Positions 496 to 63,237 of a DNA stretch of 64,000 nucleotides are shown here, one piece after another. The notes under the pieces are model-generated. The model worked only from the letters and a program-made list of their open reading frames with translations. It was not told the DNA's origin and did not search any database. Every line of letters starts with the position of its first letter. The stretch's first letter is position 1. The translations under genes and the position numbers were made by a program. This DNA comes from Raja brachyura (taxonomy: Eukaryota). The stretch spans positions 38,068,001-38,132,000 of the forward strand of contig OY740790.1 of NCBI GenBank assembly GCA_963514005.1, in the 5' to 3' direction.

Positions 496-518
496 TGAAA
501 GAGAATCCCAGCAGTGAT

Positions 519-550
519 GTCTGAAGAAGGGTCTCGACCCGAAACGTCGC
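519..550 (+). ncRNA. Minimal type I hammerhead ribozyme motif
   Basis: CUGAAGA (521-527), extra A, stem II GGGUC/GACCC, GAAA, C-GUC cleavage triplet (546-548), and palindromic ACGU in place of helix III. Activity untested. Confidence 0.65.
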
Positions 551-613
551 CTATCTCCTTCGCTCCTTAGATGCTGCTGCACCCGCTGAGTTTCTCCAGC
601 TTTTTGTGTAACC
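519..613 (+). mobile_element. Short Penelope-derived, hammerhead-bearing element (young copy)
   Basis: gtctgaagaagggtctcgacccgaaacgtcgcctatctcc...gctgagtttctccagctttttgtgtaac. It differs by one base from the reverse complement of 12894-12987. Confidence 0.85.
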
Positions 614-1141
614 CAGAGATGTCTAAACGTTTGTTTCATGTTGTTGGAAGACACTGTGCATGTCATGAAGGAAACCAGAACAATAAATTGAGGACTTTGT
701 AAACCATCCATAAATCCTCATGTTTACCTTCATGTTTTATCTAATATAGAAATTTAGTGGTATACCAGATGTAAAAAAGCATGGCACCAAGCAGTCTATT
801 TTTGTTGGCACTTACTTCTAGGTGTTCTCAGCATCATTACCACACTAGAATTGTGATGCCAATTGCGTGTTTGACCCTATTGGAGGGCCCGGCACTGCAG
901 TTGGTTGAGTATGAAGAAATGGCTGTGATAAGTAGACTAGGTCCTTATATGCATACTTTCGCCAACTAAAATTATTTGTATTTTCTTCAACCTGAATGGA
1001 TTAGTATACATAATGAATACGATTCACCACAGATTAAGTTCATATTTAGTTATGGAAGTTAAATATTTTTGCTGCAGTCCCAATAATAATAGGTATTGAT
1101 TTCATCTATCTTGGATGATCATATTCAAAATTTCTACTCAT

Positions 1142-1429
1142 GTTTAGTTTAGAGATACAACATGGAAACAAGCCATTCAGCCCACGGGTCCATGCTGACC
1201 AGCGATCCCCGTACACTAGCTCTATCCTACATGCTTGGGACAGTTTACAATTTTTAGCAAAGCCAAATAACCTAAAAACCTTTACGTCTTTGGAGAGTGG
1301 GAGGAAGTCAGAGCACCTGGGGAAACCACATGCAGCCGTGGGAAGAACGTACAAACTCTGTGCAGACAGCACCCATTGTTAGGATCGAACCTGCAAGGCA
1401 GCAACTACCGCTGCAACACTGTGCCGCCC
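1142..1429 (-). mobile_element. HE1-like tRNA-derived V-SINE
   Basis: Reverse complement starts gggcggcacagtg (tRNA-like head with deletion). It contains the V-domain-like ttcctcccac and ends in a (ctaaa)n tail. Similar to 24115, 38537 and 52931. Confidence 0.9.
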
Positions 1430-4164
1430 TTGTTCTGGAAACTGAGGACTAAAGGTGCTGCAGAATCTTTGATACACAAATTCATGTTTGGAAATATTTG
1501 CCAATTAATTTCTATTTTACTTGTCTTAAAAGGAAAAACACTGTTCAAAAACTCCAGATGGCTTTCAATAGACAACGGACAAAATCCCTCCAGATACCTG
1601 GCTTCTGAGACTAAATTATGAACATGTGCCACGTTGTACAGGTGAACAAGCAGTCTGGCTTGCAAAATAAATGTGGGGGTTGCCTAGTAAGAATTATAGT
1701 CCAAAGGAGTAAGGCTGCCAGTATTTTATTCCATCATCCTAGATTCTAACATGAAACTAACAAAAACTTGTCCCACTCACTGTATGCAGAGGGTTGGATC
1801 TGAATATTAATGATTGGTAGGAGTGATCCATGCAAAATGTTACATCCTACCACGTTATAGCATATCTGGCCACCAGCCTTTTGAATTAATGTACAGCATC
1901 ATGACTCCCTCATTAATAAAGCACAGGCAAGGCCAACAAACTCCAACCCCCACTCCTCTGCCCCAACCATCCCTTGTCACCAATAGAACACACCCAGTCC
2001 TTATTGTATGGCTTTCAAAGACATTAGTTTTGTTTTAATACATTGAATCATTAGGCGTGAAATCTTCATTCGGGAAAATAATGGATGTCGAGCAGAGAGC
2101 AGTTTTAAACACTAGAAGCACACACGGTGTTAAATGAAGTAAGGTAACATTTAGAAATAAATTAAGGACAAGAAGGCTTCGAACATAATTTATATCCAAA
2201 ATTTGAAAAGCTTTCCTGCAGTTTATTGCAGACCTCCTGCAATGGTATAAATAACACTGGGGGTCTGGTATTTCTTTTATAAATATACTTTTCATCTGCA
2301 GTTTTATACAAAACCTGAAACTACACAGAGACTGATGAAATCTATAATCCATTCAGTGGGAGGCAAGAAAGAATTTTCTCTTTCAATAAAAGTCTCTGGC
2401 TGTGGGAGAGCTGGGGGTGGGGAGGTGGGTTTGGGGGATGTGGGGGTAAGATTGTTTTAACCTGACGGCTCAGTTTTCAAAAAAAAGCAGGGGGGCCAGG
2501 TAGGATGTATGGTCTACATGCTGCGAGCCAGTTGTAAAAAGATATAGAATACAGCTTGAAGTTTTTTTTCTGTTATGCATGAACAAAGAATAAGACAATG
2601 GGATATTTATTAGAACTTTGATTTAGTGCTGAAAGCTGCTCTCTGACCTGAAATAAATTTGTGTTCACAGTCTAAAAGGCTTTGTGGGGAAAGACCAAAG
2701 TGATGCAAGCCATCTGCATTGGGCTCTATGCCAGTCGTTTGCCAGTATGCTTAGGCCACCTGGCTCAATACACAGCCAAGTATGCCAGTGACTAGCCAGC
2801 TTCACCCCTCGGGCCGCTGGCTTAAAGCTCTTTTGAAATGCAGGGAGCCAGAAACTATGTTCAAACTCTCCCTTGCCGACATCTTTGTCTGTTGGTAGAC
2901 AGACTGTGTAGTCATGAGCAGCAGACAGTAAGCTGGCCTCACTCTGAGTGAGCTCATTCTTTGTCTGTGGAAGAATTCAATATTGGTGCATTGTCACTAT
3001 GCTATCACCTGGACCATGAGACTGGCACAGAGTAATAGGCAGAAGACGGTACCATGTGCTGTGATAAAGAATACGTTAAATGATTACAGGCTGAATGCCA
3101 GCTGCTTTGAATCCCAGTTGACTTGTTAACTCTTTCGGACTTCAATACCCTGTAACATCTTGTTTCTTTACACACTGAAAAGAAAATGAAATATAGCCCT
3201 TATAAATAGACCTTTCGGCAGTTTATTTGGTTTCTATCTTCCATAAGCTTTCAGAGCAGAAGCATTTTTCTTTTGAAAAAGGAATTGCGCTTCAAGTGAG
3301 CTCAACATTTATTTGGTTTGTAGGTTTTTGTTTTGTTACTTGTAGGACACCCTGAGAGTATTCATTACAATTTACAATATGAATGCGGTTTGGAGGTAAT
3401 GTTATCATAATTATGTATTGATTGCTATGATTCTGTGCCTCTGTTATGTTAATAGCAATGGCATGTCCTTCATACTTATTGCACATTTTTGTCCTGAAAA
3501 ACAAATTACAGACTAATTTGCTCGCAGAATGGTAAATTTTGTAATTTCAGAATTAGGTTAGAAGTGGGAAGGAAGGGGAAGATAGCTGAATGACCAGCTG
3601 GTGTACAAGGAGGACTTTTCCCTTTTTCAATATTAAATTGCTGAAAAGCTTTTTAAACAATTGCTCAATCTAGGCAAGGATTGCATGTTTATACTGTCTA
3701 GCCCAAAATTCCGATCTACCGATCTAGAGCGGACTCTACACTTTCCTAAAGGGAGTACCACTTTCACCAGTTATATTTTAAAACCTTGATGTTTCAGTTC
3801 ATTGGTAATTCCTTCCCAAATCTTGAAAGGGGAATTCTTTACATAAAAGGGCCAAGCACCTGCTTCTTCTGGATACCTTTTTGACGGGGGGTGGTTGGAG
3901 GTTTCAGAACAAATGGATGGTGGGGTTTTACAAGCTGCCATAACTTCATTGAGCAAAGACATAATTTTGCATTGTGTTATGTTTTTGGTAAAGTTGTCAT
4001 TTTCCTAATCTGCTGCCTTAGGGAATTATAACATTGTGCAGAGCCATGATATTTGCATCCTTGGCTTTTCTGAGAGAAAACTGATGGATGCCAGGCAGAG
4101 ACCATCATTCAATCAATCCCGCCACTAACTATGACATGATAATGATCAGGGTAGAGGATATGCC

Positions 4165-4522
4165 TATCGACAATAGACAACTTCTTTGTCATATACACCA
4201 AAATGAAATTCCTTTGTCACATGAAGCTCATGGAATTAGAGTATGTGGTTATAATAAATACACCACTAAATACAAGTGCAAAACAGCAGAATGGTGCAAA
4301 GATTGTAATAGTGCAAAAAAGAGTAAGAATATGGGGCAGCATCTCTGGGAAGGGATGTGAAAGAGGTGTTTGGTTCAGGAATCTGCTAGCGGTGGAGTAG
4401 AAGTTGTTCTTAAGTCTGGACATCAAAGCTTTCAAGTTCCTGTACCTTCTCCAGAAGATAAGAGAGAAAAGGGAAAGGCCAAGATGTCAGGCACCCTGGA
4501 TGATACTTCCAGCCTTGCTGAT
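4165..4522 (-). mobile_element. Older Rex1/Babar LINE 3' end
   Basis: ORF 4217-4435(-) KALMSRLKNNFYSTASRFLN matches the Rex1 terminal motif. The 3' UTR resembles 27775-27860. Confidence 0.7.
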
Positions 4523-5191
4523 CAAAAGTCAAAGTCAAAGTCAAACAAGTCAAAGTCAAACAAACTTTATTGTCATTTAGAAATACATTGATATATGCAG
4601 TTCCAAAACGAAATTACGTTGCATTTGGCTCCCTGTGCAACACAATAAATTAACAGAAGGATAGGCATGGATGAAAAGGATAAATAGACAATGGTGGCAG
4701 CCCATTACATGGCATTCAGGAGTCTGATGGCTCATGGGAGGAAGCTTTTGCAGAACCTTGATGTTCTGCTCCTTATGCCGCGATATCTTTTTCCCGAGGG
4801 CAGCAGAGTGAACAGTCCGTGATGGAGATGTGTGGGGTCTTTTATAATACTGCTGGCCTTAGACACGCAACGTTTGGTCGCAATATCCCCGATTGAGGGG
4901 AGAGAGGTCCCGGTGATTTTTTCCGCTGTCCTCACCACTCCCTGCACAGACTTCCAGTCGGAGGCTCTACAGTCCCCAAACCAGACAGAGATACAGCTGG
5001 TCAGAATACTCTCTATGGTGCCCCTGTAGAAAGTAGTGAGGATGGGATGGGGGAGATGAGCTCTTCTCATCCGGCGCAGAAAGTGCAACCGCTGCTGCGC
5101 TCTCTTAACTGTTGATGAGATGTTATTCGACCAGGTCAGACTGTTAGTGATCTGCACCCCCAGGAACTTTGTGCTACTGACCACCTCCACA
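4523..5191 (-). mobile_element. Young 5'-truncated Rex1/Babar LINE
   Basis: Uninterrupted frame KFLGVQIT..LTWS..KRAQQRLHFLRR..FYRGTIESILTSCISVWFG..IIKDPTH..LFTLLPSGKRYR. (TTTGAC)n tail at 4523-4560. TSD-like ttgctgat/tcgctgat at 4515-4522 and 5192-5199. Confidence 0.92.
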
Positions 5192-5850
5192 TCGCTGATG
5201 CAATGCACCATGAAGATGGACTGGATGGGAGGAAGTAACAAGCCTGTGATGGGCTGGGTTGTGTTCTCCACATGCTGCAGGTTTGAATGGTCAAGAGAAG
5301 AGTCAAGAGTGTTTTATTGTCCTATGTCCGGATGGGACAATGAAATTCTTACTTGCCATACCAGGCGGAGATGCATTATGTTCGAATATTTAACATTATG
5401 CATCTCTAGAGGTTCAAAAGAATCCTCGTGGACATATCAAATCTAAAGTAAATATGCTGTTGCATTTCTTGTTCACTCCATCAGTGTGAAGGGACCAGGT
5501 TAGATTGATGTGGATGATGGATACGGTGATATGGATGGCAAGAAACCTGAAGCTGTCACCCATCTCTGCAACAGGACCATTGATGAGGACAGGGTTGTGT
5601 TCACCTCCCCATTGTTAGGTCAGCAACTTTTTATCTTGTTGTTACTAAAGGCTAGGTTGTTGCATTGACACCATGCCACAAGGTTCCCAATTTTTATTTT
5701 CTTGTATTCCATTGTCGACTGGCTGGCAACAGGGGCAAACTTTAAGATCAAACGGTACTTAGCCACACAGTGATGGCAGAGAGCAGGGCACTGAGAACAC
5801 AATTTTGAGGAGCACATGTCAGAGAGATGAAAATGTCATGACTGATTCTA
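5192..5850 (-). mobile_element. Older Rex1/Babar LINE RT region (continuation of 4165-4522), interrupted by a short Rex1-type tail at ~5290-5357
   Basis: Degenerate VENTTQPITG..LPPIQ and NLVAWCQCNNL motifs. Confidence 0.7.
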
Positions 5851-5860
5851 ACTGACTGCC

Positions 5861-5931
5861 AATAGACAATAGGTGCAGGAGTAGGCCATTCAGCCCTTCG
5901 AGATAGCACCGCCATTTAATGTGATCATGGC
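5861..5931 (-). mobile_element. HER1/CR1 LINE extreme 3' tail
   Basis: gacaataggtgcaggagtaggccattcagcccttcgag..gccatttaatgtgatcatgg, the same tail as 33600-33677 and 50716-50800. Confidence 0.85.
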
Positions 5932-6062
5932 ATGTGCCAGTGATGAAGTCCACAATTGGTGTACAATTTCAGAACCTGTCCAGAGACTCCATCTGAGTCA
6001 AATTCTCTTGGGTAGCTGATCGAGCTTCTCCCTCAGTCAAGAGAGTATAGACTCGGACCCAG

Positions 6063-6295
6063 AGCATTTGAGACCCAGGTTCAATCCTCACCTCTAGTGT
6101 TGTCCGTGTAGAGTGTGCACGCTCTCCCTGTGACCACGTGGGTTTCTTCTGGGTGCCCTGGTTTCCTCCCACATCACATAGACATCCTGGTTTGTAGGTA
6201 ATTGGCCCCTATAAATTGCCCTGAATGTGGAGAGAATGGATAGAAAGTACGATAGCATGGAACTGGTGTGAGCAGGTGATCAATGGGCGGCTTGG
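6063..6295 (+). mobile_element. HE1-like SINE, older copy lacking its 5' start
   Basis: B-box-like ggttcaatcc followed by ctccctgtgaccacgtgggtttc..ggtttcctcccacatc. Confidence 0.8.
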
Positions 6296-6984
6296 TGTAG
6301 TCTGAGAAAGAGTTTACCCTCATGAAAACAGATCTGATGTCTGCCACCTAAGATGTATGGGGCAGAGCCAGAGGGGGATTGGTGGGGGGGGGACGAGACA
6401 TACTTTAATGGAACTATGTTTCTCTGCACAAAACGGGCATTAAGCTCATCCCACAGAGACGTGCCATTGTCAGAGATAACCCCTGTTTTTTGGTTTATGG
6501 CCCATGATTATATTTATGCTTATTATGCAGTTGTCCAGTTTCCGCTTGACTGAATGAATCCTCTAACATTTTCTGGAATTCCCTCTTCGGACCCCTGATG
6601 GCATCCTGGAGATACCTGGCCTTCTTGTACGGGGTCATGGATCTTGAAAGCCTCACCTCTACATGTTAGCATAGAGTGAATATCCCTATTCATTCAAGGT
6701 TTCTGTTGAGGGTTGACGCTAATTGTCTCTGTCAGAATGCAGTCACATTTTCCAATGAAACCAGTGACAACAGTGGTAAACTAATTCAGGCTGGTGAAGG
6801 GTTCTTGAGCATGTTCCATCCACTGACTCACAGTAGTCTTGAAGTAGACTTTCTGCCTCCTTAGAACACTGATGCATTACTCTCTTCATCAGTATCTTGC
6901 ACTTCAATCTCTGTCCATCGGCCGACAGGAACAGCATTGTCTGATGATCAGGCTGGCCGAAATGGAAACGAGGGATGGAGTGAT

Positions 6985-7281
6985 GGTCATAAGGTCATGT
7001 GATAGGAGAAGAATTAGGCCATTCTGCACATCAAGTCTACTCTGCCATTCAATCATGGCTGATCTATCTCTCCCCATGCTCCTGCCTTCTCCCCATAACC
7101 TCTGACACTTGTACTAATCAAGAATCTATCTATCTCTGCCTTAAAAATATCCACTGACTTGACCTCAACAGCTTTCTATGGCAAAGAATTCCACAGATTC
7201 ACCACCCTCTTTCTAAATAAATCTCTCCTCATCTCCTTCCTAAAAGAACATACTTTAATTCTGAGACTATGACCTCTAGTC
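6985..7281 (-). mobile_element. HER1/CR1 LINE 3' end
   Basis: gccattcaatcatggctgatc..ccttctccccata..gaattccacagattcaccaccctct. Homologous to 41910-42110 and 47755-48250. Confidence 0.88.
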
Positions 7282-8229
7282 ATAGGTGTTTGATGGTGTA
7301 ACAAAAGTCTAGTGTTAACACCCTATGTGATGTTGGAGACATGCTGACAGTATTTGAGAAGCATCGCTCCCTAAATTGGATTTTTTTTTTTCTGTACGGG
7401 AGAGTTCTTGTTAGGAAGCCCTGATCCAAGTTACTTTCCTACCTGTAGATAATTAGCACATTCATACGGGAACATGGAAATAAGTGTAGACCATTTGGCC
7501 TCTTCAATTTGTTTTTCCATTAATTTATTTTAAGGCTGATTTCTACCATATATCCAGCTTAGCTCCATTTCTCTTAATTCCTTTGTTGACTCAAGTCTAA
7601 AAACTTAAAATTAAAATTAACACTTTACCGAAAAATTGATAAATGATATTTTTCGAAGAGAGTTCCAAAAATCTGTCATCTTGTGACAGTTTTTAAATTA
7701 CTTGCAAGAAGGAATAACTTTTCAAGGAACTCCCAAGGGCTTGCTGAGCACTTTATATACCCAATTTGAGATTGCACAGAATTTACAATCCATAAAATTT
7801 CAAAATTAATCGATGTGGGAATTTGCCAATCAGAAATTCTCACACATTTTTATTCTGGAGTCAGTTTGGGCCCAGACTTGGAAATGACACAACGCAAGTT
7901 CTCCAACTTTGGCAGGTCTCCATGTCTGCTGGAAGTGCTAATCATAACTTTAGGCAAACTCTGCACACTTTTAATGGAGGAGTCAGATATCTCCACCAAG
8001 GCTAGATCGTTTTAACAGTCTGAAATTGAAAATATTATTCCAGACAATTTCAGTAATAGATAATTAAGTGCTTTCTTCCTTCATTAATTGGATGTGGATG
8101 TCGCTTCAAGCCAGCACAATAACCAGTGGTATTGTGGTTAAGTTGCTGGAGTTTCATTCAAAGGAGCTGGAATTGGATATTTTGGTAAAGCATTTTAGGG
8201 ATAGTGAAAGACAAACATGTTGAAAGGCC

Positions 8230-8445
8230 ACAATGAGTAAATGTGAAATTCCTTCACTTAAGAGGGTGAGTGGATATTTGGGTTTTTAAGCCAATCGAGG
8301 TTTCATGGTTTATATTATACTACAATTATTTAATTATTTGAATTTAAATTCCCAGCAGTTGCCTTGTGATTACATTTCTCTGGATCGATACTCCAAATCT
8401 CAAGATGCTACCTGAGTAATTCAACAACTAGAGGCACTGCACCCT
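8230..8445 (-). mobile_element. Old tRNA-derived SINE remnant
   Basis: Degenerate gggtttttaag..ggtttcatggt..ttgaatttaaattccc..ctctggat pattern recalled from chondrichthyan SINEs. Confidence 0.4.
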
Positions 8446-9210
8446 TCCCTGTTTTAGCTGCATTTTATAATGCTCATGGGACACCCACTGATTGTGGGGG
8501 GAAAACTGCCGCTAGAAATGCATGAGCACCAGCTGCATCTTTAAAAAAAAGACGGAATGAAATTGTGATGGTACTGCATGGATTGGCTGTCCTGAATATT
8601 TAGCGACAGGCAGTTTGGGGCTTCTAGGCATACACTGGGAATGCTGAAAATCCTAAACATACTGACCAATTCGGAATGGCAAATCTGTCAGTTAATTCCA
8701 CTGCTGGACTCCTCAGTCTTGTAGAGATTAAATTGGGGAATTGCGTCTAATGGCCTTAGTTACGCTGGACCTGGTGTGGAAGCACAAACTCACTGATTTC
8801 AACGGAGATCGTTCACCCATGGACTAGGAGGCAACGAACCCCAGCACTTTTGTCTCACATCTTTCAATCGGACTATTTTGCTTAGGTCTAATGTTTTAAT
8901 CATTAATATTTCAGGTATTTCTATTTAATTATGTGTTTGAACTTATTTTAATTGTAAAACAACTTAAAATATTATTTTTTTAATTTCAGAGAACAAAAGG
9001 ACAAAATTAATTAACCTTCCAACCTGTACATCTGCTGTGGCTGGGGCTTGATCCACAGTCACACAGTACAGGGGGTGCTTTAGGGGGTGTGACTTCCTTA
9101 CGATGTATCAGAATTCCTGTCACCGTTCAGACCTTGTCACCGGAGCCCAGGATATTTTGTGATAGGCTGTTTGCAACCAGATGAGGGAAGTATCAGTGTA
9201 AGGGTTTGAA

Positions 9211-9306
9211 GTCTGAAGAAGTGTCTCGACCTGAAACGTCACCCATTCCTTCTCTTCGGAGAAGCTGCCTGTCCCGATGAGCTACTCCAGCATTTTGTGT
9301 GTATCT
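9211..9306 (+). mobile_element. Short Penelope-derived hammerhead-bearing element
   Basis: gtctgaagaagtgtctcgacctgaaacgtcacccattcc...actccagcattttgtgt. gtgtaagg is present on both flanks. Confidence 0.85.
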
Positions 9307-10789
9307 AACGGTGTAAGGAGATTAGGCTAAGAAATGGCGTGAGGAAAAGTACAGAAAATATGCAGGATATTCCCTTATTATTGAAAAAAAGAATAGCTGA
9401 AGAACAATTGAGATACAATTCAGTTAGTTAAAGTTCCGAGGGTTAGAAACACAGATTTCATTTGGGATGATGTGTTGCAATGTTTCCCTCCTGTCAATAT
9501 TTAAGAATGAAGTGGGGGGAAGGATTATTTAAAGTATAAACTGGAAGTAGTTTTTCTGTTATCATTGGCCTAACGGTTTGTAGAATTTGTTCTATCAGGC
9601 TGCCTTCCTTTTAAGAAGCTCCTGTCACAGATCAGACAGGTCAAGTTGCAAGGCAATGGCTAATCAGTTCACACAGCAGATTGTCTGACTTCAGCTTGAA
9701 TTATCTCAGTCAGACATCCTGGCTGGTTCCGTCAGAAATGTCTGATGGCTTAAGCCTAGCAGGACCCAAAGCTTGGCAACCACTAAGCCAGAGATGAAAA
9801 AAAGGAAATCCTATCTCGATTGGTACTTTTCCCATCTAGGTTCTCCCACTGTAGATCGATGGACTGATCAATAGCTGGTTTTGAGTTGTTCATCTTGCTG
9901 CAGACTGATTTTAATGGAAACCTTGTGGCTCAGCACAAGCTTTTATCGTGTGTCAGAGGGGTTTGATTTCTACTGCAGCTGGCAGAGGCTCGATTTGATT
10001 CCCAGTGACAGCTTGTGTAACTTGAGTAGGGAAGGGAATCAACATTAACAAGTACTGATCAATCTCAACACCATTATTTAGTTGAAGCAAATATTGCTGT
10101 TTTGGATAAAATACATGAATGTGGATTTATTATACTGCTTCTATACATTAATGGGTTGCAAAGGTTGTGATTAAACTGATTGTGTTAGAGCAACATATAT
10201 AATTGTTTACTGAGCCTCTGGATTGAATCTTGAAGTTATGAATTGTAATCTAGGACCCCTGCTTATGAATTAGAGCTTTTAAGGAATATATTTTAGCTAT
10301 TTGCAATTTCAAGCAATCTTTGTTGTTAATGATGTAATGCTAAAGGGAAATCACACCTCCATATATAAAATATAAAATTGAAAATACACATTTGTTAGTT
10401 TCCTGGCTCAAAGGGTTCCAACTCTTACCGGCAGTAAAAAAAAGGGATATATCCTGAAAGATTCAGTAAAGTTTGGTTAAGTTTTAAGCTGGCCACTCCG
10501 TTCTGCAAAAGCACGATCAGTTGCCATTTCTATGTAAAGCTCGATTTGCCATGATTAACTATTCAAGCTGTGTCTAGTCAGTTAGCAGTAAGTAATGGCC
10601 AATTAATCCAATAGTTTATCACAAGGAATATATGCCACTTTCTGTAATAGAAGAGTAATTTAGAATAGCTAGTATAGTAAGCCATGTATTTATAGGTCTA
10701 CTATTCTTTGTGTCAGGGAAAAAGAAACGTAGCAGTGAAGCATTCATTATTAAAATACAGAAATATATGCTAGTCACTAATAAATCCAA

Positions 10790-11030
10790 TAAGAATTCTG
10801 GAGAAACTTGCTTATCAGAAGTGATTCATATTTAGAATTTGCTAACCCGATGAAGTAGTGGAGCTCAATAGCATGGATATATTTCAGAGAAAGCTAGTTA
10901 AATATGAGACATAAAAGAATTAAAAGATATACATATGGGGTTAGATTAAGTAAGGTGGATGAAGGCTTCTGATGAGTATAAGAGCAGTATAAGTCTGTGG
11001 GTTGAAAGCCCCTCTGTTTCTGTGTACCAA
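10790..11030 (+). mobile_element. Old CR1 3' region
   Basis: Degenerate cagaagtga..tagaatttgcta..gtagtggag..atttcagagaaagctag. Confidence 0.5.
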
Positions 11031-11339
11031 TTCAATGCATTTCGACTTTGTGTGAGGATGCATATTACACTATAAGCACAATGGGTTCAAATATTTAGAG
11101 TGAGAGGAGTGTAGTATTTATTTGTAATTAAATGTTTTATGTTTCATATCAACAGTTCCTGAAGACATGACAAACTTGTCAAAATTTATTCCACATGCAT
11201 GTGTTAGTATCATGGGCTGCCATTGTAAGTCTGTTCTAATATGGCATAGAACAAAGCCTAGTGCCTGTTCTGATGGTTCCACTTTCAGTGCTGGGCTGAT
11301 CAAATTAAAGCTAATCAAAAATTGTAAGTAACAAATACA

Positions 11340-11590
11340 AACTATAAACTGCTGGAAATTCTCAGTAGATTGACGCCAAGTGTGGATAGAAAAGCAGATT
11401 ATATTTGAAGTTAAATACTGTGCTGGAGAAACTCAGCAGGTTAGGCAGCATAACTGGAGAACATGGATAGGCGATGTTTTGGGGTGGGACCCTTCTTCAG
11501 ACATATTTGAGGTCAATTACTTGTCGTAATTGTTGCTCTTGCAGTATTTCTGCTTGACTTGATGAATTTTTCCAGCATTTTCAATCTTTA
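11340..11590. mobile_element. Old inverted (palindromic) Penelope-derived element interrupted centrally
   Basis: tgctggaaattctcag (11350-11365) versus tgatgaatttttccagca (~11560-11577) as degenerate inverted arms. Confidence 0.55.
11415..11502 (-). mobile_element. Hammerhead-bearing short element (degenerate core) with 14-bp TSD
   Basis: Reverse complement gtctgaagaagggtcccaccccaaaacatcgcc. Flanks atatttgaagttaa (11401-11414) and atatttgaggtcaa (11503-11516). Confidence 0.85.
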
Positions 11591-12893
11591 TTTTATATAA
11601 TAAAAATGAAAAATATGAGTAATAATCTTCAAATGAATAATAGTTTAATGCCAATGTCGAATGTTTTTGCTCACAGTGGACAGTATGGCAGACAATGTTG
11701 AAAGTTATATACCCGAAGTGAATTGAGACTGCAGTGGCCCTCTGACATATTGCTTTTTGTGTAAATGTGGTCAACGTTCAGGCACAAAAATATAAAATGA
11801 AATATCATCTACGGTTAGAAAATTACAACAAAGCAACAGTGAAACATTTTGTTCATCTATGACATTTCCACTTTGTTCTAGGTTATGTTGATATCACAAG
11901 CGATCAATCACCAATTGCTGACGAGCTTCCAATCTTATTTAATTTGATGGAATCATAGAATTGTATGAAAAAGAGATCACCCAGCCCATTAAATCCATCC
12001 CAGTTTTTTAAAGAACAATCTCATCAGTCTCCTTTAAATGCTTTTCCCGTGAGGTCTGCCAAAATTATTTCCCCTCAAGTGCTTATCCCTCACAAGGGAA
12101 GGATTAAAAGTATGTATGTTTGATCTTGTACTCTGACCAGCTTAATGGGCATGATGTGCTTGGACATGCATTGGACATGTACCCAAGTCCATAGTTCTAA
12201 AGAAAGCAAACCTGGCTGATTGATTCTCTCCTCATAACTGCAACACTCCATCCCAGGCAACTATAAAGATCTATAGTTCTAAACCACACAACAGAAGGGT
12301 GTTTAACTTTTCCTTCAGTGACTCGATAACCTTTTGGGCATTGATCCAGTTTATTGATAATGCAGGTAAAATTTGTAAAATCTGTTGCAATAATGTTGAT
12401 TATCTTCAATAACATCGAACAGAGATAGTCTGAGGTTTTATGCATATTAACCTCATGGGGAAGCAATTTAAACAAATATTTTAACCCTTCATGCTTAGAG
12501 TGTAATATGCATCTTCACACAAAGTTGTCCAATTAGAGGGCAGTTGATAATTGCTGAACAGATAGATCCTAACTACTTCCCTTGAGAAGAGGAAGAAAAT
12601 GAAAGCTCAAAGAAATAGTTAGCTTTATTTGTTGAGCATATCTGTCCTTCTATTAAAGATTTCCCCATTATACATTGATGCTCTTTCAGGGGGTTAATCA
12701 AATAATCATTTGTAAGAAACTTTATAACTTGAAGGCAGCCAGTTTGTCACTTGGTCATAAAGTCATTTCAGCTCACCACGTAAATGGCGACCATCAAGCA
12801 CACATGCATATTAAACCCGTGTATTAGCACTTGGTCCACAGCCTCCTCTGCCTTGGCAATTCATGTGTTTGTCTAAATACTTAAAAATCATGA

Positions 12894-12988
12894 GTTACAC
12901 AAAAAGCTGGAGAAACTCAGCGGGTGCAGCAGCATCTAAGGAGTGAAGGAGATAGGCGACGTTTCGGGTCGAGACCCTTCTTCAGACC
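12894..12988 (-). mobile_element. Short Penelope-derived hammerhead-bearing element (young), 14-bp TSD
   Basis: Near-identical to 519-613. TSD cttaaaaatcatga (12880-12893) / cttagaaatcatga (12989-13002). Confidence 0.9.
12956..12987 (-). ncRNA. Minimal type I hammerhead ribozyme motif
   Basis: Reverse complement GU-CUGAAGA-A-GGGUCUCGACCC-GAAAC-GUC-GC with an intact core. Confidence 0.65.
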
Positions 12989-14589
12989 CTTAGAAATCAT
13001 GACTCTGGCTCCAACACCACCTCAGGCAGTTTGTTCCAATCGCCCTCTGAGTGAAGAACTTCTTCCTCAGTTCTCTAATCGCTTATTTAGATACCTATGA
13101 AATGGGGAAATAGTTGTGCAGTGTATCCTACGTATGCCATTCATCTCAGCCTCATCCATTCTAAAGGAAGCAAACCTGGCTGACCAATTCTCTCCTCAAA
13201 ACTGCAACACTCCATCCCAGGCAATGTACTGGTGAATTATACCCTTCCTGTGGCATAGTGACGAGCATGCACACAATATCCAGATGTAGCCTAATTAATA
13301 TTTTCTAAAGTTGTGCCATAACCTACTCTTGTTCTGTGCCATGGCAAGTTTAGTGTATATCTTTACCACTTTATCCACCTACAAGGATTGTAACATCAAG
13401 ATCCCTCTGTTCTTCAATATTAATGCCCTGCCATTCATTGTGTATGTCCTTGCAATAGTTCTTCTGAAATGTATCATCTCACACTTAAAATGATGAAAAA
13501 ATCCCATCTGCCCATCATTCCATCTGATCAATAAGGTCCTTTAGCCTGACATCATCCTTTTCACCAACAATTTTTGTATTTCATGGAGCTGTTGGTAGTT
13601 GTGCTCATTTTGTGTGTCCAAGGCTTAAAAGAACAAGATTGTATATTTTTTTTAAAAGCTTCAAAATTTGCCTTGAAAAAAAGGAAATTTAAAACACTGT
13701 CTTTATGCATCTTGTTACCTTGTGCTAATAGATTAGCTGTTAAAAGATTAGTTATGTTTTAAAAATAGAGAAGCAATTCCACAAGGGTTCCAAATGAACT
13801 CTGCATTCTCTGTTTTTTGACTGACATCTTGTAAACTAATAACCTGGTTTGTAATCTGTTTGGCTATTGCGTGATAACACCAGTCAGGGAGAAAGTAATC
13901 TGCTGGTCATTAATTCATTCGGAAAGAATGACAGCATTTTATGGATACTAATTGTTGATCATCAAGGGCTCATAGTTCGCTGCTTATCTTGTAAGTGAAA
14001 ACTATCAAAACTTGGCACGGTTTGTGTCTGTACTCAATTCTGTTTTACAAATTGTATGACAAATGGCAGCATGTGTGGATGGATATGCGAGTCAAAGAGA
14101 AAGTTGGCAATGTGGCACAGCTGATAGTGCGCACCTCTATGCTATTACTTGCATGTTATCCAGAACCAACTACTTTATTGTAATGGGATAGAAGGAGAAA
14201 ACCAAGTTGCTGGTGTTATGAGGTGAGATGCTATAGTAGGTTTTCCAACCCAATTTCTACTTTTGTTGTATGTTACTGGTGAAGCAAGGGAAACCAACTC
14301 TGGGCTTATGGATTATATATATCCAAAAAGCAGAGCCTTTGATGAGGGTCTGTATTACAATGTTGAAAGATGATTCAATATAAATTAGGACAAAGACTGC
14401 ATTAGATTATGCTTAATTATACATCTTAGAAAACATAATTTCTCCTAGATATCTCTATCTGAATATATGATATTTACAATATTTATTTCACTGTTGCAGT
14501 CTTTTTATGCACTATAACTTTGCCTGCATTACTAGGTCTGGCATTAATTAACGTCTTCTTTGACGCAATGTTTGCAGTCTCAAAATATT

Positions 14590-25170: not shown

Positions 25171-25252
25171 TGTTAGATAGAACTGCAGATGCTGGTTTAA
25201 ATCGAAGGTAGACACAAAATGCTGCAGCATCCCTGGAGAGAAGGAATGGGGT
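25171..25252 (-). mobile_element. Truncated Penelope-derived short element with exact 19-bp TSD
   Basis: aacttaaatagttcatatg at 25152-25170 and 25253-25271 flanks aactgcagatgctggttt..gacacaaaatgctgcagcatccctggagagaaggaatggg. Confidence 0.85.
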
Positions 25253-26962: not shown

Positions 26963-27484
26963 CATCACATGAGAGGTCAAAGTGATGAATGCATCTATGT
27001 CCACACTGCAGTTACATAGCAGATCCTGCTCGATGCACCACATTCCATTCATCAAGATTTGTATCTAATGCCAATGTACTCTACTGCTCCCTCACATATT
27101 TACCACTGTAAGCCTGAATGAGTAAGCTTCATATCCATATCTCGGAGTTTGCATATCCTATGCTTTAGTCAAGCATGACTACCAGTGATTGTCGATTACG
27201 CATTAACACATAGAACAAGCAAGAGCTTGTGCTTATTTCTATGGAGAAGATAGAGAGATGCCAGCAACACTGATTCTGTGGTCTGGTGTGGAACCAAATC
27301 ACTTGAAAATGGCAGTGTCTTCCGACTTAACCCTCCTCGTTACACTTCATTTCCTCTTTGCCCGATGAACTCTTCAGATTCTTGCAGATGGGGTAAACCT
27401 GTAGGTCTCCTAACAGAATAATTGGTACTGACACTAGGAAATAGCCAGTGACTAATGTGTGGTTTTCTTTAATCTTTAAATAAA

Positions 27485-27578
27485 AAAACATAAAATGCTG
27501 GAAATACTCAATAAGTCAGGCAGCTTCTATGAATGAGATACTCAGTTAACTTTACTAGTGATGACCTTTCATCACAGT
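27485..27578 (-). mobile_element. Older Penelope-derived short element (CUGAUGA-type core, degenerate)
   Basis: aaatgctggaaatactcaataagtcaggcagc..gatgacctttcatcac. Confidence 0.65.
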
Positions 27579-27960: not shown

Positions 27961-28119
27961 TGATCTCCGACAAGCAACGATGAATAGGAAATTGTGAAGT
28001 CTTGCATGGAATTCCAGGATCATTGGCAGTATGGGCCTTGCCATTATGACTGCAAATGTCAATGATAGATTTCAATGAAATTATCCATTTTCAAGCAAGG
28101 ATTTCTTATCCGACGAAAC

Positions 28120-28250
28120 AATTTGCAGGAAGAACTGTGGATCGAGCAGCATCTATGGGGGATGCTCACCACAGATGTTCCTCAACCTGCTGAGTGTTTC
28201 CAACAGATTGCTGTTTGCTCTAGATTCCAGCATCTGCAGTCTCTTGTGGC
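28120..28250. mobile_element. Degenerate inverted Penelope-derived short element
   Basis: gcagcatctatgggg..ccacagatg..cctgctgagtgtttcca..gattccagcatctgcagt. Confidence 0.6.
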
Positions 28251-28439: not shown

Positions 28440-29870
28440 TTAAAGTTACCAGAAATCTGAAGTAAAAATAGAAATCTGTGGAAAGACTCAACAGGTCATG
28501 TAGCTTCAACAGAGAGAAGCTAAGTTAATGTTTTGGGCAATGTTCTGTCATTGGAAATGGGGAAAAAATAGAAATAAACCATTCTTTCAGATGCAAAAAA
28601 AAAAGTTGAAATGGAGCAGACAAAGGGGATGTACTATTTACGATCAGGTAGAGACCAAGGAAACTGAAATACATAAGTTGGAGTAAATATTTGAGTTGGA
28701 TGGCGAAGGCTTGGAAATTGGAGGAGATTTCTAGGAATGAAGAAAGAGAAAAGACAGAGAAGAATACAAATTGCTGGCAGTTGCTGGAAACCTGAAATAT
28801 TGCTCAGGAAAATGCTAGAAATACCCAGCAGATCCCACAGCAATGGTGGAGAGTCAATTTTACTGGTTGAAGATCAATCATTGGAATTGGTCGGTTTTGA
28901 TTCAAACTGGAAAGGCTGGTTTTCTGAAATTTATGAATTCAATTGTGAACCCTGAGGATTGAAACAGGCCGTCAGAATATGAGATAACATTCTTCAGTCT
29001 TATTTTTAGCTTTGTTGGAACAGGGAAAGATGGCAAAGACAGAGATTTCAGTCTGCTAATAGGATAGACAAATCTGAAGAAATAAATTCTTGCTGGAATC
29101 TTTCCCATCTCATGGCACCTTCCCATGTAGCTGCAGGGGATCCATCAGCTGCCTGGTGCCAAGTGAGGTTGAGATTCACTAATGATTCTTTCACTTTATT
29201 TTATTGTGTTCCATCGCTAATCTCTGTTGTATTCGATTGACCATAGCTTTTAGTTGCTTATCATTTTAATTCTCCATTCCACTCCCATTCTGAATTCCCC
29301 GACTTTGGCCTCTCATACAATTCCTGTAAAGTTTAATATGTCCTATTTTCTGTCTGTGCATACCAAACCCTCAGAATTACATATTGAATTCAACAGGTTA
29401 TAATAACCAGTCTTCCCATATTGTGTCACAGCTGATGTAATTCTGATGTAATGTTATCAACGTGTGACATGAATTCAGTTTTTTTTCTTATTACAGATGC
29501 TGCTTGACCTTCTAGGTCATACTAGCATCCGCTTTATTCCAGATTTCCATCAACTGCCATGTTCTGTATCCCAATCATCACTCCCTCTGTCCTCATCCAT
29601 TTTCCTTTACTGAAAACTCTTTCGGGCAGATCAGTCTTGTTTCACAGCTTCACACTTTCTCTCAGAAAGCACCAACTAATTGTAGACATTGCCTTTAATC
29701 TTCACATCACACCCCCTATTTTGCAAATTTAAACATGAGGAGTTTCAAACTTTTCCAGGTTTGATGAATGGTCATCAGCCTGAAATCTAATGTGCAGGAA
29801 GGAACTGCAGATGCAGGTCAAACAGCATCTGTGGAGCAAAATTCACAGTTTAGATTTCAGGCAGACAAAT
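28440..29870. mobile_element. Cluster of old Penelope-like remnants in inverted arrangement
   Basis: Plus strand 29250-29395 resembles the C-terminal HFNSP.HSH..LIF..P....IEF stretch. A minus-strand counterpart lies at 28920-29000. Terminal-repeat-like units face outwards (28450-28550, 28780-28885, 29440-29560, 29760-29862). Confidence 0.55.
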
Positions 29871-33677: not shown

Positions 33678-34315
33678 CTTCATGATGCAACAGTGAATTT
33701 CCACAAATAAGTTTCAGGTTCTACTAAAATACTTCAAATACATCTTCTTTGATGCCTGGAATAAATTCCCTAGCACTAAGCTATTACAAATTCCCTTTGT
33801 TTAATAGTCAATGCAATTTTTAACTAAAAAGGTCTTGCTCTGTGAAAACAAATAATCCTCGATTTCAAAGCCGGAATTCATAATTCTCACCACAGTTGTA
33901 AATAAACAAATATTATTAATTTTTGAGTGGAAAGAATATTATTTTTCCATTTTGTACAGTAAGCCAAGTTTCACAAATTTTATTTATTTGCTAAGACCAT
34001 AGACATTTTGCATCTGTCTTTTTAACCCTTACATCTATTAAGTTCATCCTAGTGGATAAATGATGTAGTGCATTTCATCAATTTTTGTACAAATTCTCAG
34101 GATATTCTGTTCTCTATAGTTCCCCTCCAACTTTTTTTCTTAAGATATAATAATGATTGTGATTTGTGTGTACAGGGGTTAGATTGGAAATATAGTAAAT
34201 TGTGAAGATGGAACATTTTAATTATCTGGATAGATAGACAAAGCGAGGATCGTTATCCTGAAACGGGCGATTAGGATATTTTATACAGATACTAATGGTT
34301 ATTAAGGTAGAAGTG

Positions 34316-35105
34316 AGCCACACCAACTACCTTGAGCACACCCAGCTTGTCTCTTGCAAGGATCCCATCCTTGCACTGTATTCCCCAATTGCTGCAACCA
34401 AGATGATGCTTTCCACTCAAGGACATACCAAATGTGCTCTTTCTTTAGTAAACATGGCTTTCCCTCTGCTGTTTTTGATGGGGACCTCACCCATGTCTCC
34501 TCTGTGTCTTGCTGTTCTGCTCCCACTACCCCTACCCATAGACGGGGGGAAAAAAAAGAGTTTGTCTGGTGTTCACATTTCACCATACCAGCCTTCACAT
34601 CCAAACCATCATTCTCCGACATTTCTGCCACTTTCAACATGATCCCAACACCAGTCACATCCTCTAATCTCCACCTCTTTCTGCTTTCCACAAGACCAAT
34701 CTCTCTGCAACATCTTGGTTTGTCATTCCTTCTTACTCAACCCACCTCCTCCCCAGGCACTTTCCCTACACCTCCTCTCCCATTTCCATCCAGCGATCTC
34801 ATCAGTCCTTCCAGATGGGACAGACCTACATGTGCACCTCTTCTAAACTCATCTAATTCTCTTGGTGCTCCCAATGTACTCGCCTTTACATCGGCAAGAC
34901 CAAACGTAGATTAGTCTGTTTTGTTGAAAACTCGCACTCTGCCCATCAAGGCCTGCTGGATTGCTAATGATTTTAATTCACCTTCCCATTCTCATACCAC
35001 CTGTCTGTTCTGGGCCTCCTCCACTGCAGAGTGAACTGGAAAATCAGACCTTGATGATCAACTTGGGTATCACAATGCTATGAACATTGAATTCTCCAAT
35101 TAAGT
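34316..35105 (+). mobile_element. Penelope-like element remnant (RT C-terminus plus GIY-YIG endonuclease)
   Basis: Frames read SHTNYLE..SCKDPI, DDAFHSRT.QMCSFFSKHGFPS, WCSQCTRLYIGKTKRRL (YIG motif, ~34860-34915) and ..MNIEFS. Followed by a pyrimidine-rich tail to ~35400. Confidence 0.8.
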
Positions 35106-35594
35106 AATAACTGCAACTCCCCATTCACTTTCCCCTGGCCCCACTCTAGCCCTGCAGTGCACACATTTGTCCTGCCATCTCCCATATGTTAGTTACCATG
35201 CTCCTTTCTCCTCCTTCGTATGCTCATCTACCAAACCCAAGTCCCATATTTCCCTTTTGTACCGCTTTTTCATTTTCACTCTATGAAATTCCACCCATAT
35301 CCCCCACCCCCCAGTTTTACCTTTCATACCACCTGTCCTATCTTTATCTGACACCCTGTGTGTTGCCTCCTTTTCACCTCGAGCATTTGTCACTGTCTCC
35401 ACCTAGACTGAAAGCATTGTCAAGGATGACTGCCACCCTGGCTGTTCCCTTTTCTGTCTTCTACCACCTTGGAGGAGATGCCACAGCTAGAAAGTTCAGA
35501 TGTCCACACCATCTTCTTCTTCTCTAATATCAGACTCCTAAACTAATCATCTCTTTCACATGCCTTTCAGAAAGGTGCTCGTGGATGTATCTTT

Positions 35595-41039: not shown

Positions 41040-41490
41040 CTGTCACCTCTGCTGAGTTGGGAGACAAGATTGGGAGTGATGACCAATATTAATCTGCAAC
41101 TGCCTTCCTCTTCCTCCATCTCCTGTTCCACATCATGGTCCTCAGGCTTTGTAGTTTCTTGTACTGCAGGCCGCTGTCTTCATTTGAAAATGTCTGCAGT
41201 ATGCAGCAGATTACAAAGTCGTTTTGGTCAAACGTTGCTGGTCACCTGTAAGCTGATGCAGGCAAAATAATTGCACCTTCAGACGAAGCAGGATGTGTTC
41301 AACTCGGATATGCCTACTTGCATTGCCTTTGTTGTATCTGTGCTCAACTGCTGCTGTTGGAGAGCAGACTGGCTCTTGCCGCTCAACACTCATCCCTCTG
41401 CGTGGCACTAAAAATGCCCAGCACTCTCCCAAGATGAGGTACTTTCTGGATGACATTCACTCTGAGTAAGTTCTTGCAGCGATTGTCCAT
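41040..41490 (-). pseudogene. Fossil PIF/Harbinger (HARBI1-like) DDE transposase C-terminal region
   Basis: YLILGEC..PTAAVEHRYNKGNASRHIRVEHILLRLKVQLFCLH..TG, then frameshifted VICCILQ and an acidic tail PEDHDVEQEMEEEEG. This parallels the LLGD..E.RYN..H..TR..VE..G.LK.RF.CL..ACC.LHN layout. Confidence 0.65.
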
Positions 41491-41495
41491 TCCCA

Positions 41496-41580
41496 CCACA
41501 GATACTGCCTGACCCACTGAGTGTCTCCAGCACTTTGTAGTTTGCTCAAGATTCCATTATCTGCATTTGCTTGTGTCTCT
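41496..41580 (+). mobile_element. Penelope-derived short element 3' part (no hammerhead core)
   Basis: cagatactgcctgacccactgagtgtctccagcactttg..gattcca..atctgca. Confidence 0.7.
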
Positions 41581-41909
41581 CTTTTTTGATCCATGATGGG
41601 GAAAGGTCTACCTGCAGCATATAACATATCTTAGTGAGAGGAGTTTTAGAAAAACTGAGCCTACAAATACATTATTTATTACAGAGGTCCAGATAGAAGC
41701 TCTAAAGCCTCTCTGGGAGTATGTTCTTAACTGATGGCATGTCGTTGTTCCTTGCCCAGAAGTAGTCACCTCAACCTGCATGGCCAGTCATCAACAAACA
41801 AGTCCTGGCAGAGGTGTGACCATTAATGCATTAATTAAATTAGTTTATTGGCAGTTAAATGCTGAAAGAAAATACACATATCTGTTGTAGCACTGTCTGT
41901 TATAGGAAT

Positions 41910-46879: not shown

Positions 46880-47067
46880 TGCAGATTCAGATTTACAAAA
46901 AAAGACACAAAGTGCTGGAGCACCTCAACAGGTCAGGCAGGATCTCTGGAGAATGTGGATAGGTGACGTTTCGGGCCGGGATCATCTAAAGAAGGGTCCC
47001 GACCCAAACGTCACTAATCCATGTTCACTAGAAATGCTGCCTGACCCGCTGAGTTACTCCAGCACTT
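46880..47067. mobile_element. Head-to-head palindromic dimer of the hammerhead-bearing element
   Basis: aagtgctggag..gtgacgtttcgggccggga | ctaaagaagggtcccgacccaaacgtcac..ctccagcactt. Confidence 0.85.
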
Positions 47068-47754
47068 GAGTAGTTTTGGTTATTGAGAAAAGATATGAGA
47101 AGAGGAAAATGCTACATAAGGTATGTGGAAAAATGACAGGTTATTTTTACTTCTGAAGCTATAGGTAATGGAATGTGATATGTTTGTAACCTTATTCTGT
47201 TGAAATAGGGATCCTCTGTGGGATCATTTTAGAATCGCTGTTGGACAGAACATTCTTGGCCCAGGCAGTGCTTGGACTGCACGTAACCTGCACGTCAAGA
47301 CCACAGTTACCATTTTCTGTCTTGGGGGATCTAATCACAATCAGGACGTTGCTTCAGGTGGTGGATCCGAAGCTACTGCTGAGTGCTACCCCAATAGTCT
47401 TCTGACAGCTTGTGCTAACTGTCTCTGTATATCTGATAGAAACAGTTTAACTACATTTAAATTATCTAAAAAAGGGAATCATTCTAGCGTTTAAAGGCAC
47501 ATCTTGCCTAAAGTTGATTTAAATTGAAATTAAGAAAAAAACAAACCACCTACTTTGTTATCCAGCTTGAATGGGATTGTGCTAATTATGACAGCCGTAG
47601 CTAGCAAGAAGATGTGGGATCAGATACAATGATGGCCAATGGGACTGAGCTCCACCCCTGGGCTAGCATCTAATATCTGTTGCATCTGTACTTCTGTCTT
47701 GTAATGCCAAAGACATGCCAGTTACCTAGAGCTGGATGGACTGCTGTTGCATAC

Positions 47755-63222: not shown

Positions 63223-63237
63223 CTAAATGGTGATAAT

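Follow-up and report, generated by a model that had tools for sequence, protein, structure and literature searches.

A recently inserted 94-nt repeat with a minimal hammerhead motif in Raja brachyura, probably the truncated end of a Penelope-like retroelement

The window, a stretch of 64,000 nucleotides from Raja brachyura, contains a 94-nt repeat that is real and recently inserted. Its family is very abundant, with a rough estimate of 10^5 copies, which was derived from contig depth ratios and therefore gives an order of magnitude only and no copy number. With a probability of roughly 0.6, the unit is the 3'-terminal part of a pseudo-LTR from a Penelope-like retroelement of a cartilaginous fish, reaching from the start of a minimal hammerhead to the 3' end of the element, truncated where the reverse transcriptase stopped at a palindrome and carrying the hammerhead passively. 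This reading was drawn from an optional tail, inverted pairs, target-site duplications, an old insertion in the window with an ORF end followed by an older-type unit, and a complete relative whose layout matches. The class of element has been known since 2014, and the family of the window is a further example of it.

Four 94-nt copies, at 519(+), 9211(+), 11502(-) and 12987(-), share the start GTCTGAAGA. The earlier note, made from the sequence alone, had described these copies with a common first base, which was found at all four positions, and its single difference between the 519 and 12987 copies was confirmed (1 of 94 bases). The copies and related pieces were as follows.

519..612, + strand: young solo unit of 94 nt; hammerhead 519-550, C3 at 521, stem II 529-540; about 64 nt from the hammerhead to the 3' end
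9204..9310, + strand: older solo unit starting at 9211, stem II weakened; 8-bp duplications 9196-9203 and 9311-9318; the 7 nt directly upstream nearly repeat its start
11415..11502, - strand: older solo unit, core mutated; 14-bp duplication 11516-11503 and 11414-11401
12894..12988, - strand: young solo insert of 95 nt, the unit 12987-12894 plus an extra G at 12988; hammerhead intact, predicted cut after 12958
12989..13002, - strand: upstream copy of a 14-bp target-site duplication (13/14 match; controls 0/300)
12880..12893, - strand: downstream copy, pairing with 12989..13002
25171..25252, - strand: copy whose first base is unit position +31, immediately past the predicted cut; 3' tail present; internal deletion; perfect 19-bp duplications 25271-25253 and 25170-25152
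27482..27577, - strand: old and diverged unit from an older subfamily (20.9 bits)
28112..28250, no single strand: decayed inverted pair of 3' halves (14.8 and 11.0 bits), tail on the + arm
41466..41590, + strand: 3' half of the unit with tail (33.9 bits)
46862..47078, no single strand: head-to-head pair; left arm with a tail of about 35 bp and its first 11 or so bases gone, right arm tailless
55482..55679, no single strand: head-to-head pair; arms 83% identical over 199 nt, with 3 bases shared between them at a palindromic hub whose centre is 55580
63223..63311, - strand: old unit of an older subfamily, stem II altered but paired (12.5 bits)

In the nhmmer search of the window, 10 further non-seed matches scored above the best control, 7.7 bits. 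These matches, the two head-to-head pairs (46,899-47,078 and 55,486-55,675) and the target-site duplications had been missed by the earlier note. A coding role for the unit was considered unlikely because the subfamilies differ by a 1-nt indel.

The hammerhead core is intact at 519 and 12987 and has the type I minimal form, with the conserved CUGANGA, GAAA and NUH elements around stem II, the extra base before stem II, the G10.1-C11.1 pair and a palindromic 15.2-16.2 without a loop. A descriptor of the minimal hammerhead hit exactly two sites in the window, 521(+) and 12985(-), whereas 100 shuffled windows averaged 0.1 sites and never had more than one, and the 28-nt pattern with up to 3 mismatches gave three window sites versus none in 100 shuffles. 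The proposal of a Penelope-type minimal hammerhead was supported. A scan of the window with Rfam returned no hammerhead family match at E up to 5. In the 519 copy the predicted cut falls after base 548. One stem II pair is broken in the 9211 copy, and G12 and G16.2 are lost in the 11502 copy. Stem I, previously put at 2-4 bp and dependent on the flank, has two pairs in the 519 and 9211 copies and four in the 12987 copy, where it is partly flank-derived; the minimal hammerhead of D. virilis likewise has a stem I of 2 bp. The proposed 5-bp stem II had to be corrected to 4 bp with a 4-nt loop, as five pairs would require a loop of 2 nt. Judged by eye, stem II variants stay paired (GGGU/ACCC in the young units, AGGUC/GACCU at 63311, GAGGC/GCCUC in the complete relative L001). 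The core was better kept than the rest over all seven copies (mismatches 5/77 versus 78/497, p 0.036), but the difference was not significant once the two young copies were left out (5/55 versus 50/355, p 0.40), and only two of the eight near-full copies have an intact core.

Target-site duplications were found at three of the four named copies and, more broadly, at four of the seven copies tested (14, 8, 14 and 19 bp). The duplication at 9211 matched at 8/8 positions (controls 0/300), that at 11502 at 12/14 (controls 3/300), and the 19-bp duplication of the 25,252 copy was not equalled in 2000 controls. Among the seven, none was found at 519, 27577 and 63311; at 519 there was no significant ungapped duplication, as 54 of 300 controls were equally good. 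The orthologous site of the 12987 insert was empty in all three other organisms compared (runs X1, X10 and X16). Contigs of X16 lacked 111 bp there, and those of X1 and X10 lacked 109 bp; since 109 is 95 + 14, the repeat was inserted as one unit with its duplication. The 11502 copy was present in X1 and X16, and flank contigs of other organisms ran into the unit at 9211. The empty sites bear out the recent mobility that had been suggested for the family; its suggested non-coding nature was supported as well. Published solo pseudo-LTRs lack duplications and are ascribed to deletion (PMC3846280, PMC8557442), whereas the solo units here have duplications and an empty site and were therefore inserted as such.

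Further pseudo-LTR features were seen in the copies themselves. The optional tail is present at 25,171-25,200 and on one arm of the 46.9-kb pair and absent at 519 and 12987, and inverted 5'-truncated copies with a palindromic junction form the two pairs in the window. Inverted copies overlapping a direct pseudo-LTR at a palindromic junction, a tail of 30-40 bp on one end, duplications of about 8-10 bp or more and solo pseudo-LTRs are likewise described for Penelope-like elements that carry an endonuclease (Arkhipova et al., 2013, PMC3846280; Craig et al., 2021, PMC8557442). The inverted pairs, one-sided tail and duplications, being Penelope hallmarks, support mobilisation by a Penelope reverse transcriptase, as proposed before, as the most likely route.

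The position of the unit behind a Penelope-like ORF was evaluated at the following places in the window.

28740..29000, - strand: left arm of an inverted insertion, old and Penelope-like, with an ORF-end motif, a short spacer and a decayed older-type unit with tail
29230..29600, + strand: right arm of this insertion, with a remnant of the ORF C-terminus, a spacer of about 70 nt and a decayed older-type unit with tail
34280..35110, + strand: remnant of a Penelope-like RT thumb, linker and GIY-YIG domain, broken by frameshifts and stops (128.5 bits)

Both arms of the 28.7-29.6 kb insertion, which is old and weak-scoring, run from the ORF-end motif into the older-type unit. The arms aligned at a score of 130.5 (random mean 39.5; 1 of 300 controls was higher, probably the arm itself). 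The ORF remnant of the right arm gave a weak profile score of 7.5 bits versus 2.3 for the reversed control, and matched P0002 at E 0.009. In relatives, the same form of hammerhead lies about 150 nt behind the ORF at four of eight loci, and L001 is a whole pLTR-ORF-pLTR element with about 83 nt from the hammerhead to the repeat end; repeats of this type share the fold with the unit, while likeness in sequence was undetectable (best 3.8 bits). A pseudo-LTR position behind an ORF for RT and GIY-YIG was seen, with weak scores, in an old subfamily and at four of eight loci in relatives. It was not seen in the young subfamily, nor behind the better-kept 34.3-35.1 kb remnant, where nhmmer found no unit nearby. 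For this remnant, Pfam returned nothing, a word-index protein search gave no match, and an Atlas search with its other frame was uninformative (best 0.80). No read-through into the unit beyond chance-level matches was seen in 93 related proteins, no exact match to the hammerhead 28-mer in the scan of viral and metagenome contigs, and no related ORF among 101 candidates in viral contigs, so that these collections and proteins yielded no young full-length element of the subfamily joined to the unit. The nearest intact proteins have a Cys-rich linker, CxxxxCxxC, between RT and endonuclease, whereas the linker of the window's own remnant is decayed. Such a linker marks the Neptune clade (PMC8557442), and the partner element is likely of Neptune type, a name that rests on the linker motif and not on a tree.

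On the pseudo-LTR reading, the GIY-YIG nuclease of the element would likely nick the target, and the RT would likely begin copying the RNA at either of two points, so that the tail of about 30 nt is included or left out. Copying would probably halt most often at the short palindrome TCAG-T-CTGA at the 5' edge of the hammerhead. Joining at the palindrome would leave a solo unit with a duplication of 8-19 bp, and head-to-head pairs would arise where a cDNA folds back or two cDNAs pair at this point. We infer the Penelope enzyme, the stop mechanism and the inactivity of the hammerhead, which would be a passenger, inert in a lone copy and hence decaying.

Upstream of the unit, Logan contigs show many genomic copies going on into either a C-rich tract or a copy in inverted orientation, as pseudo-LTR ends of a longer element would. 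The commonest of the upstream loose ends listed, with 631-760 contigs per run at 9210, was a C-rich tract whose last bases are ..ATC(A), and this end supplies the palindrome at the unit start. Head-to-head joints occurred in all four runs, and no head-to-tail joint was among the 15 joints listed, out of 15 + 657. Among the rows listed, an unrelated flank directly before base +1 was seen in 261-308 contigs per run in three runs, and upstream continuation outnumbered this stop. The fixed 5' end may reflect a palindromic hot spot, or the unit may have a short RNA of its own. An origin from a splice acceptor (AG before +2) was rejected, as the solo copies share no upstream exon.

A short RNA of its own would make the unit a Penelope-dependent SINE, an active element of fixed length (94 nt) and some 10^5 copies without a pol III head, in which master copies make a capped RNA from +1 that the Penelope RT copies full length, so that the fixed 5' end is the end of the RNA itself. 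We consider this possible though unlikely. The same start base in four of four solo copies, the 261-308 contigs with an unrelated flank directly before +1 and the extra G at 12988, which could be a copied cap in this one case, fit it as well as they fit the pseudo-LTR reading; very high abundance is also in its favor, and mobilisation in trans needs no more than pLTR sequences (PMC3846280). On the other hand, continuation into the C-rich tract or an inverted copy is commoner than the stop at +1 among the rows listed, no promoter element was found in the unit, and one boundary is common to several subfamilies, as a stop dictated by the sequence would produce with no need for separate masters. 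The lack of a pol III head, claimed earlier, was borne out by the search of four copies, which gave no tRNA gene, no B box and no Rfam match. If this alternative were true, copies starting at the cut site, such as 25,252, would be a genomic record of germ-line cutting by the minimal hammerhead, a question left open in published work.

A non-LTR retrozyme, in which tandem copies cleave themselves and the monomers circularise and are reverse-transcribed, is very improbable, and the label 'retrozyme-like' from the earlier note was not upheld. The unit shares with metazoan retrozymes a short, non-coding sequence, a type I hammerhead and a relation to pLTRs, from which retrozymes derive; these also occur as monomers, including in the one cartilaginous fish sampled (bioRxiv 10.64898/2026.07.22.740005), and one copy (25,252) does start at the predicted cut site. 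However, retrozymes are defined by head-to-tail repeats, working and mostly canonical hammerheads and circular RNA (PMC7229834 and the same preprint), whereas the hammerhead here is minimal, no array of the unit was found among the 9 tandem repeats of the window, and none of the 15 joints listed is head-to-tail. With the exception of 25,252, units begin 30 nt before the cut and so are not cut-to-cut monomers; together with the lack of tandem arrays, this argues that the unit is not a retrozyme. None of the datasets listed for positions 100-3000 was an RNA run, which speaks neither for nor against circular RNA.

It is highly improbable that the intact copies are working ribozymes that cut host read-through transcripts, an outcome the earlier note had left undecided. 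The core is intact at 519 and 12987, and at 12987 stem I reaches 4 bp with the help of the flank. Folded in isolation, the 44-nt domain is predicted to form stems I and II, and its dimer lies only 1.7 kcal/mol higher than two monomers. Nevertheless, intact cores occur only in the youngest copies, the active dimer fold was predicted 14.5-32 kcal/mol above the free folds, and for the whole unit a rival fold is favored by 14.5-20.7 kcal/mol. Helix III is impossible within one copy and requires a second molecule, and published monomers of minimal hammerheads are inactive and dimers show little cleavage (PMC4209133); self-cleavage of host RNA is therefore unlikely. With most of stem I absent as well, the hammerhead in a lone copy is predicted to be inert. 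Moreover, the ribozyme of the anole depends on its protein (PMC11167929). A special fold of the whole unit was rejected (z-scores -0.33 to 0.42 in five sequences). Movement by the CR1/L2 LINEs of the window with an incidental hammerhead can hardly be right, for although LINE remnants are common there and variable-length duplications fit LINE insertion too, the units lack a shared LINE-like 3' end or simple-repeat tail, and the inverted pairs, one-sided tail and position behind the end of a GIY-YIG ORF belong to Penelope elements.

The pseudo-LTR reading places the unit beside several known systems. In the accessible part of the 2014 description, the minimal hammerheads of truncated metazoan Penelope elements, both solo and on opposite strands (Cervera and De la Pena, PMC4209133), have the same CUGANGA core, extra base between 9 and 10.1, G10.1-C11.1 pair and palindromic 15.2-16.2 without a helix III loop, and occur in thousands per genome, mostly as single motifs ascribed to truncated elements and also as opposite-strand pairs. 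In that part, stems are longer in Schistosoma (II 7-8 and I 4-5 bp, versus 4 and 2-4 bp here), cartilaginous fish are not named, and a fixed 5' end is not described; the abundance here appears some 10- to 100-fold above the 4,000-9,000 of coelacanth and Xenopus, a rough comparison by a different method. The Poseidon element PAc of the green anole (Frangieh et al., 2024, PMC11167929) similarly has a hammerhead about 100-120 nt before its 3' end (and about 110 nt ahead of its RT start sites), a tail between two RT start sites and insertion into AT-rich DNA, and its hammerhead is dispensable for insertion. But its clade differs from the Neptune-type partner suggested here by the Cys linker, and its ORF starts in stem II, where the young units have no start codon and subfamilies differ by the 1-nt indel. 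The schistosome Sm-alpha and Sj-alpha SINEs are also short interspersed non-coding repeats with a hammerhead, but according to a review (PMC6765202) they have a pol III promoter, a canonical ribozyme and tandem occurrence, whereas the unit has no tRNA gene or B box.

The practical value of the finding lies in a very abundant young family with exact footprints, namely duplications and empty sites in close relatives. With it, the origin of inverted ends and of fixed truncation points in Penelope-like elements can be addressed by counting in one assembly. A peak of copies starting at the cut site would bear on cutting by a minimal hammerhead in vivo, and species-specific insertions are usable as lineage markers.

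The earlier note had placed four copies of a ~95-bp repeat unit at 519(+), 9211(+), 11502(-) and 12987(-), and all four were found there, each starting with GTCTGAAGA. The 519 and 12987 copies differed at 1 of 94 bases, as claimed. With a minimal-hammerhead descriptor (the core with an optional extra base, a stem II no shorter than 4 bp, then GAAA and NUH), two sites were detected in 64 kb, at 521(+) and 12985(-), which agrees with the intact hammerhead described at 519 and 12987; 100 shuffled windows averaged 0.1 sites and never held more than 1. The Rfam search of the window did not recognise the minimal motif. Stem II comprised 4 bp and a 4-nt closing loop, stem I was 2 bp in the 519 and 9211 copies and 4 bp in the 12987 copy, and the predicted cleavage position of the 519 hammerhead was after 548. 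Since the palindrome ACGU directly follows GAA in the unit hammerhead, helix III would be possible only between two molecules.

The note's view of a recently mobile family was borne out at 12987, where the insert carries a target-site duplication and is absent in 3/3 other organisms compared. The duplication matched at 13/14 bp (0/300 controls as good), compared with 8/8 bp at 9211 (0/300), 12/14 bp at 11502 (3/300) and 19/19 bp at 25,252 (0/2000), while none was found at 519 (54/300 controls as good), 27,577 or 63,311. Logan contigs of 4 of the 23 listed sequencing runs were compared with window positions 8,900-13,400, to which 75,000-88,000 contigs per run were aligned. Run X5 showed zero differences from the window, may be its source and was not counted as independent. 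In both X1 and X10, 12884 was joined directly to 12994 within one contig, and the 109 bp skipped correspond to the insert (95 nt) together with a single duplication copy; 111 bp were missing at this site in X16. The absence of the 12987 copy is read from these skips of 109-111 bp. Contigs from the 9211 flank entered the unit in X1, X10 and X16, and those from the 11502 flank did so in X1 and X16; therefore, both insertions are older. Two other gaps, 92 bp (10,307-10,398) in X1 and 82 bp (12,204-12,285) in X16, had no match to the unit.

The depth of the unit was 1.3 to 7.4 x 10^5 times the flank depth in the 4 runs, which is a depth ratio and not a copy number; the presence of 8 near-full copies in the 64-kb window would indicate a similar order of magnitude. 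The Logan tables listed 15 of at least 672 joints and 24 of at least 2,375 loose ends, so the following counts are lower bounds. Loose ends before 9210 numbered 631-760 per run among those listed and shared a C-rich consensus ending in ATC, from which the natural context is taken to be TCAG-T-CTGA. Before 9211, 261-308 loose ends per run were listed in 3 runs, with unrelated AT-rich flanks. Among the joints listed, head-to-head joints between units occurred in 4/4 runs, and tail-to-tail joints (9,299-9,306 to 12,894-12,901) were common in 4/4 runs; the window holds no intact example of the tail-to-tail form.

A profile was built from the 8 near-full window copies, which it recovers by construction. 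Beyond these seeds, 10 matches in the window exceeded 7.7 bits, the highest score among 10 controls, and two head-to-head pairs were found by the profile search:

46,862-47,078: head-to-head pair, one arm with a ~35-bp tail (3' extension) and a shortened 5' end
55,482-55,679: head-to-head pair, arms with a 3-base overlap at a palindromic centre

Both arms of the 55,482-55,679 palindrome have several unusual bases that the other subfamily copy lacks, a hint of a single template (fold-back) or of later arm-to-arm copying. The intact core was kept in 2 of the 8 near-full copies, and in the older copies at 27,577 and 63,311 stem II, read by eye, was altered yet paired. The core was better conserved than the rest across all 7 copies (mismatches 5/77 versus 78/497, p 0.036), but not significantly so without the two young copies (5/55 versus 50/355, p 0.40). 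This pattern, drawn from few copies, fits a core maintained in source elements and plain decay once inserted.

Most likely, with a probability of about 0.6, the unit is the terminal segment of a Penelope-like element. The element's nuclease would nick the target, and the reverse transcriptase would start at either of two points near the RNA 3' end and stop, by a conjectured mechanism, mostly at the short palindrome at the 5' edge of the hammerhead. Joining at this stop would yield solo units, and inverted pairs would arise by fold-back or by pairing of two cDNAs; the available text of PMC3846280 interprets junction palindromes as self-priming. The fixed start of the unit and a single extra G at 12988 would also suit the main rival, a copy of its own short RNA starting at +1, the first base of the unit, which we regard as unlikely. 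The unit did not behave as a retrozyme, with no tandem array of it in the window and a start 30 nt ahead of the predicted cut, or as a pol III SINE, with no tRNA gene or B box in the four copies.

The origin from a Penelope-like element was further examined through related ORFs. A broken frame at 34.3-35.1 kb matched 81 proteins, with Hypanus, Mobula and Rhincodon as the closest named relatives, which makes a cartilaginous fish the likely host. A GIY-YIG match (E <=0.0024) was detected in 9/16 scanned relatives, 5 of them also with an RT match. The relatives have a Cys linker, a feature of the Neptune clade in the accessible part of PMC8557442. The profile search found no unit behind this remnant. 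Another structure was found in the window:

28.7-29.6 kb: two divergent arms, each with an ORF-end motif, ~70 nt and a decayed older-type unit plus tail

The arms aligned to each other with a score of 130.5 (random mean 39.5; 1/300 controls higher, probably the arm itself), and the right arm scored 7.5 bits against the protein profile (reversed control 2.3). These arms are weak, old evidence that would join the ORF end to an older-type unit. Related ORFs (40-51% identity) were present at 8 metagenome loci, 4 of which had the same hammerhead form ~150 nt behind the ORF. One, L001, is a whole element with the hammerhead in both terminal repeats, ~83 nt before the repeat end. Sequence similarity between the unit and the repeats of these loci, L001 included, was not detectable, and no young ORF joined to the unit was found in viral and metagenome contigs or among 93 related proteins.

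A 989-codon stop-free frame of L001 (902-3868) runs through the upstream hammerhead, with an ATG overlapping the predicted cut site, a layout close to that of the anole element. L004 (1747-1983), L007 (140-326 and 1940-2126) and L008 (2085-2245) hold palindromic inserts with no relation to the hammerhead repeat; the L004 insert splits the terminal repeat.

A copy on its own is predicted to be inert. Relative to two free folds, the whole-unit active dimer was less favourable by 14.5 kcal/mol at 519, 20.7 kcal/mol at 12987 and 32.1 kcal/mol at 9211, compared with 9.5 and 5.9 kcal/mol for the two L001 repeats and just 1.7 kcal/mol for the isolated 44-nt domain of 12987, in calculations that ignore tertiary contacts. 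The copy at 25,171-25,252 (-), with a tail and the perfect 19-bp duplication, begins immediately behind the predicted cut, at +31. This single case may be a copied cleavage product and thus a trace of in vivo cleavage; 2/3 target bases preceding it are identical to the element.

Other repeats were also present in the window. A MITE-like 340-bp inverted repeat (30,695-31,035; 80% arm identity, sharp terminal repeats) is unrelated to the unit, and part of it recurs near 56,576-56,644. Four stretches of ~300 bp (1,142-1,424; 24,120-24,434; 38,541-38,846; 52,931-53,234) form another dispersed family; they contain B-box-like matches and presumably resemble the shark/ray HE1 SINE. LINE fragments with RT, endonuclease and L2-type matches lie at 129-480, 4,735-5,313 and 39,049-39,450; the 519 copy adjoins one. 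Positions 36-75 are 40 consecutive C bases.

In most of the features compared, the unit behaves like a Penelope-like element end. In the available text of PMC4209133, the same minimal motif is described as mostly single, probably from truncated elements, with opposite-strand pairs noted, no cleavage of the monomer and low-level cleavage of dimers. The accessible sections of PMC11167929 place the hammerhead ~110 nt ahead of the RT start, explain the tail, and report that cleavage occurs only with protein and is dispensable for insertion, and that RNA ends were not found at the cut. Penelope-like elements are known from parts of PMC8557442 and PMC3846280 to have inverted ends, tails on one side, duplications and solo repeats. 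Retrozymes derive from Penelope-like terminal repeats according to the available portion of a preprint that sampled one cartilaginous fish (bioRxiv 10.64898/2026.07.22.740005), whose supplements may list this family. A search of mostly open-access literature yielded no paper on the unit family in sharks or rays. The initial observation is correct and sharp, and the kind of thing is already known; four features are new here: an insertion with a clean footprint, the scale of the family, its fixed 5' end and a copy starting at the cut site.
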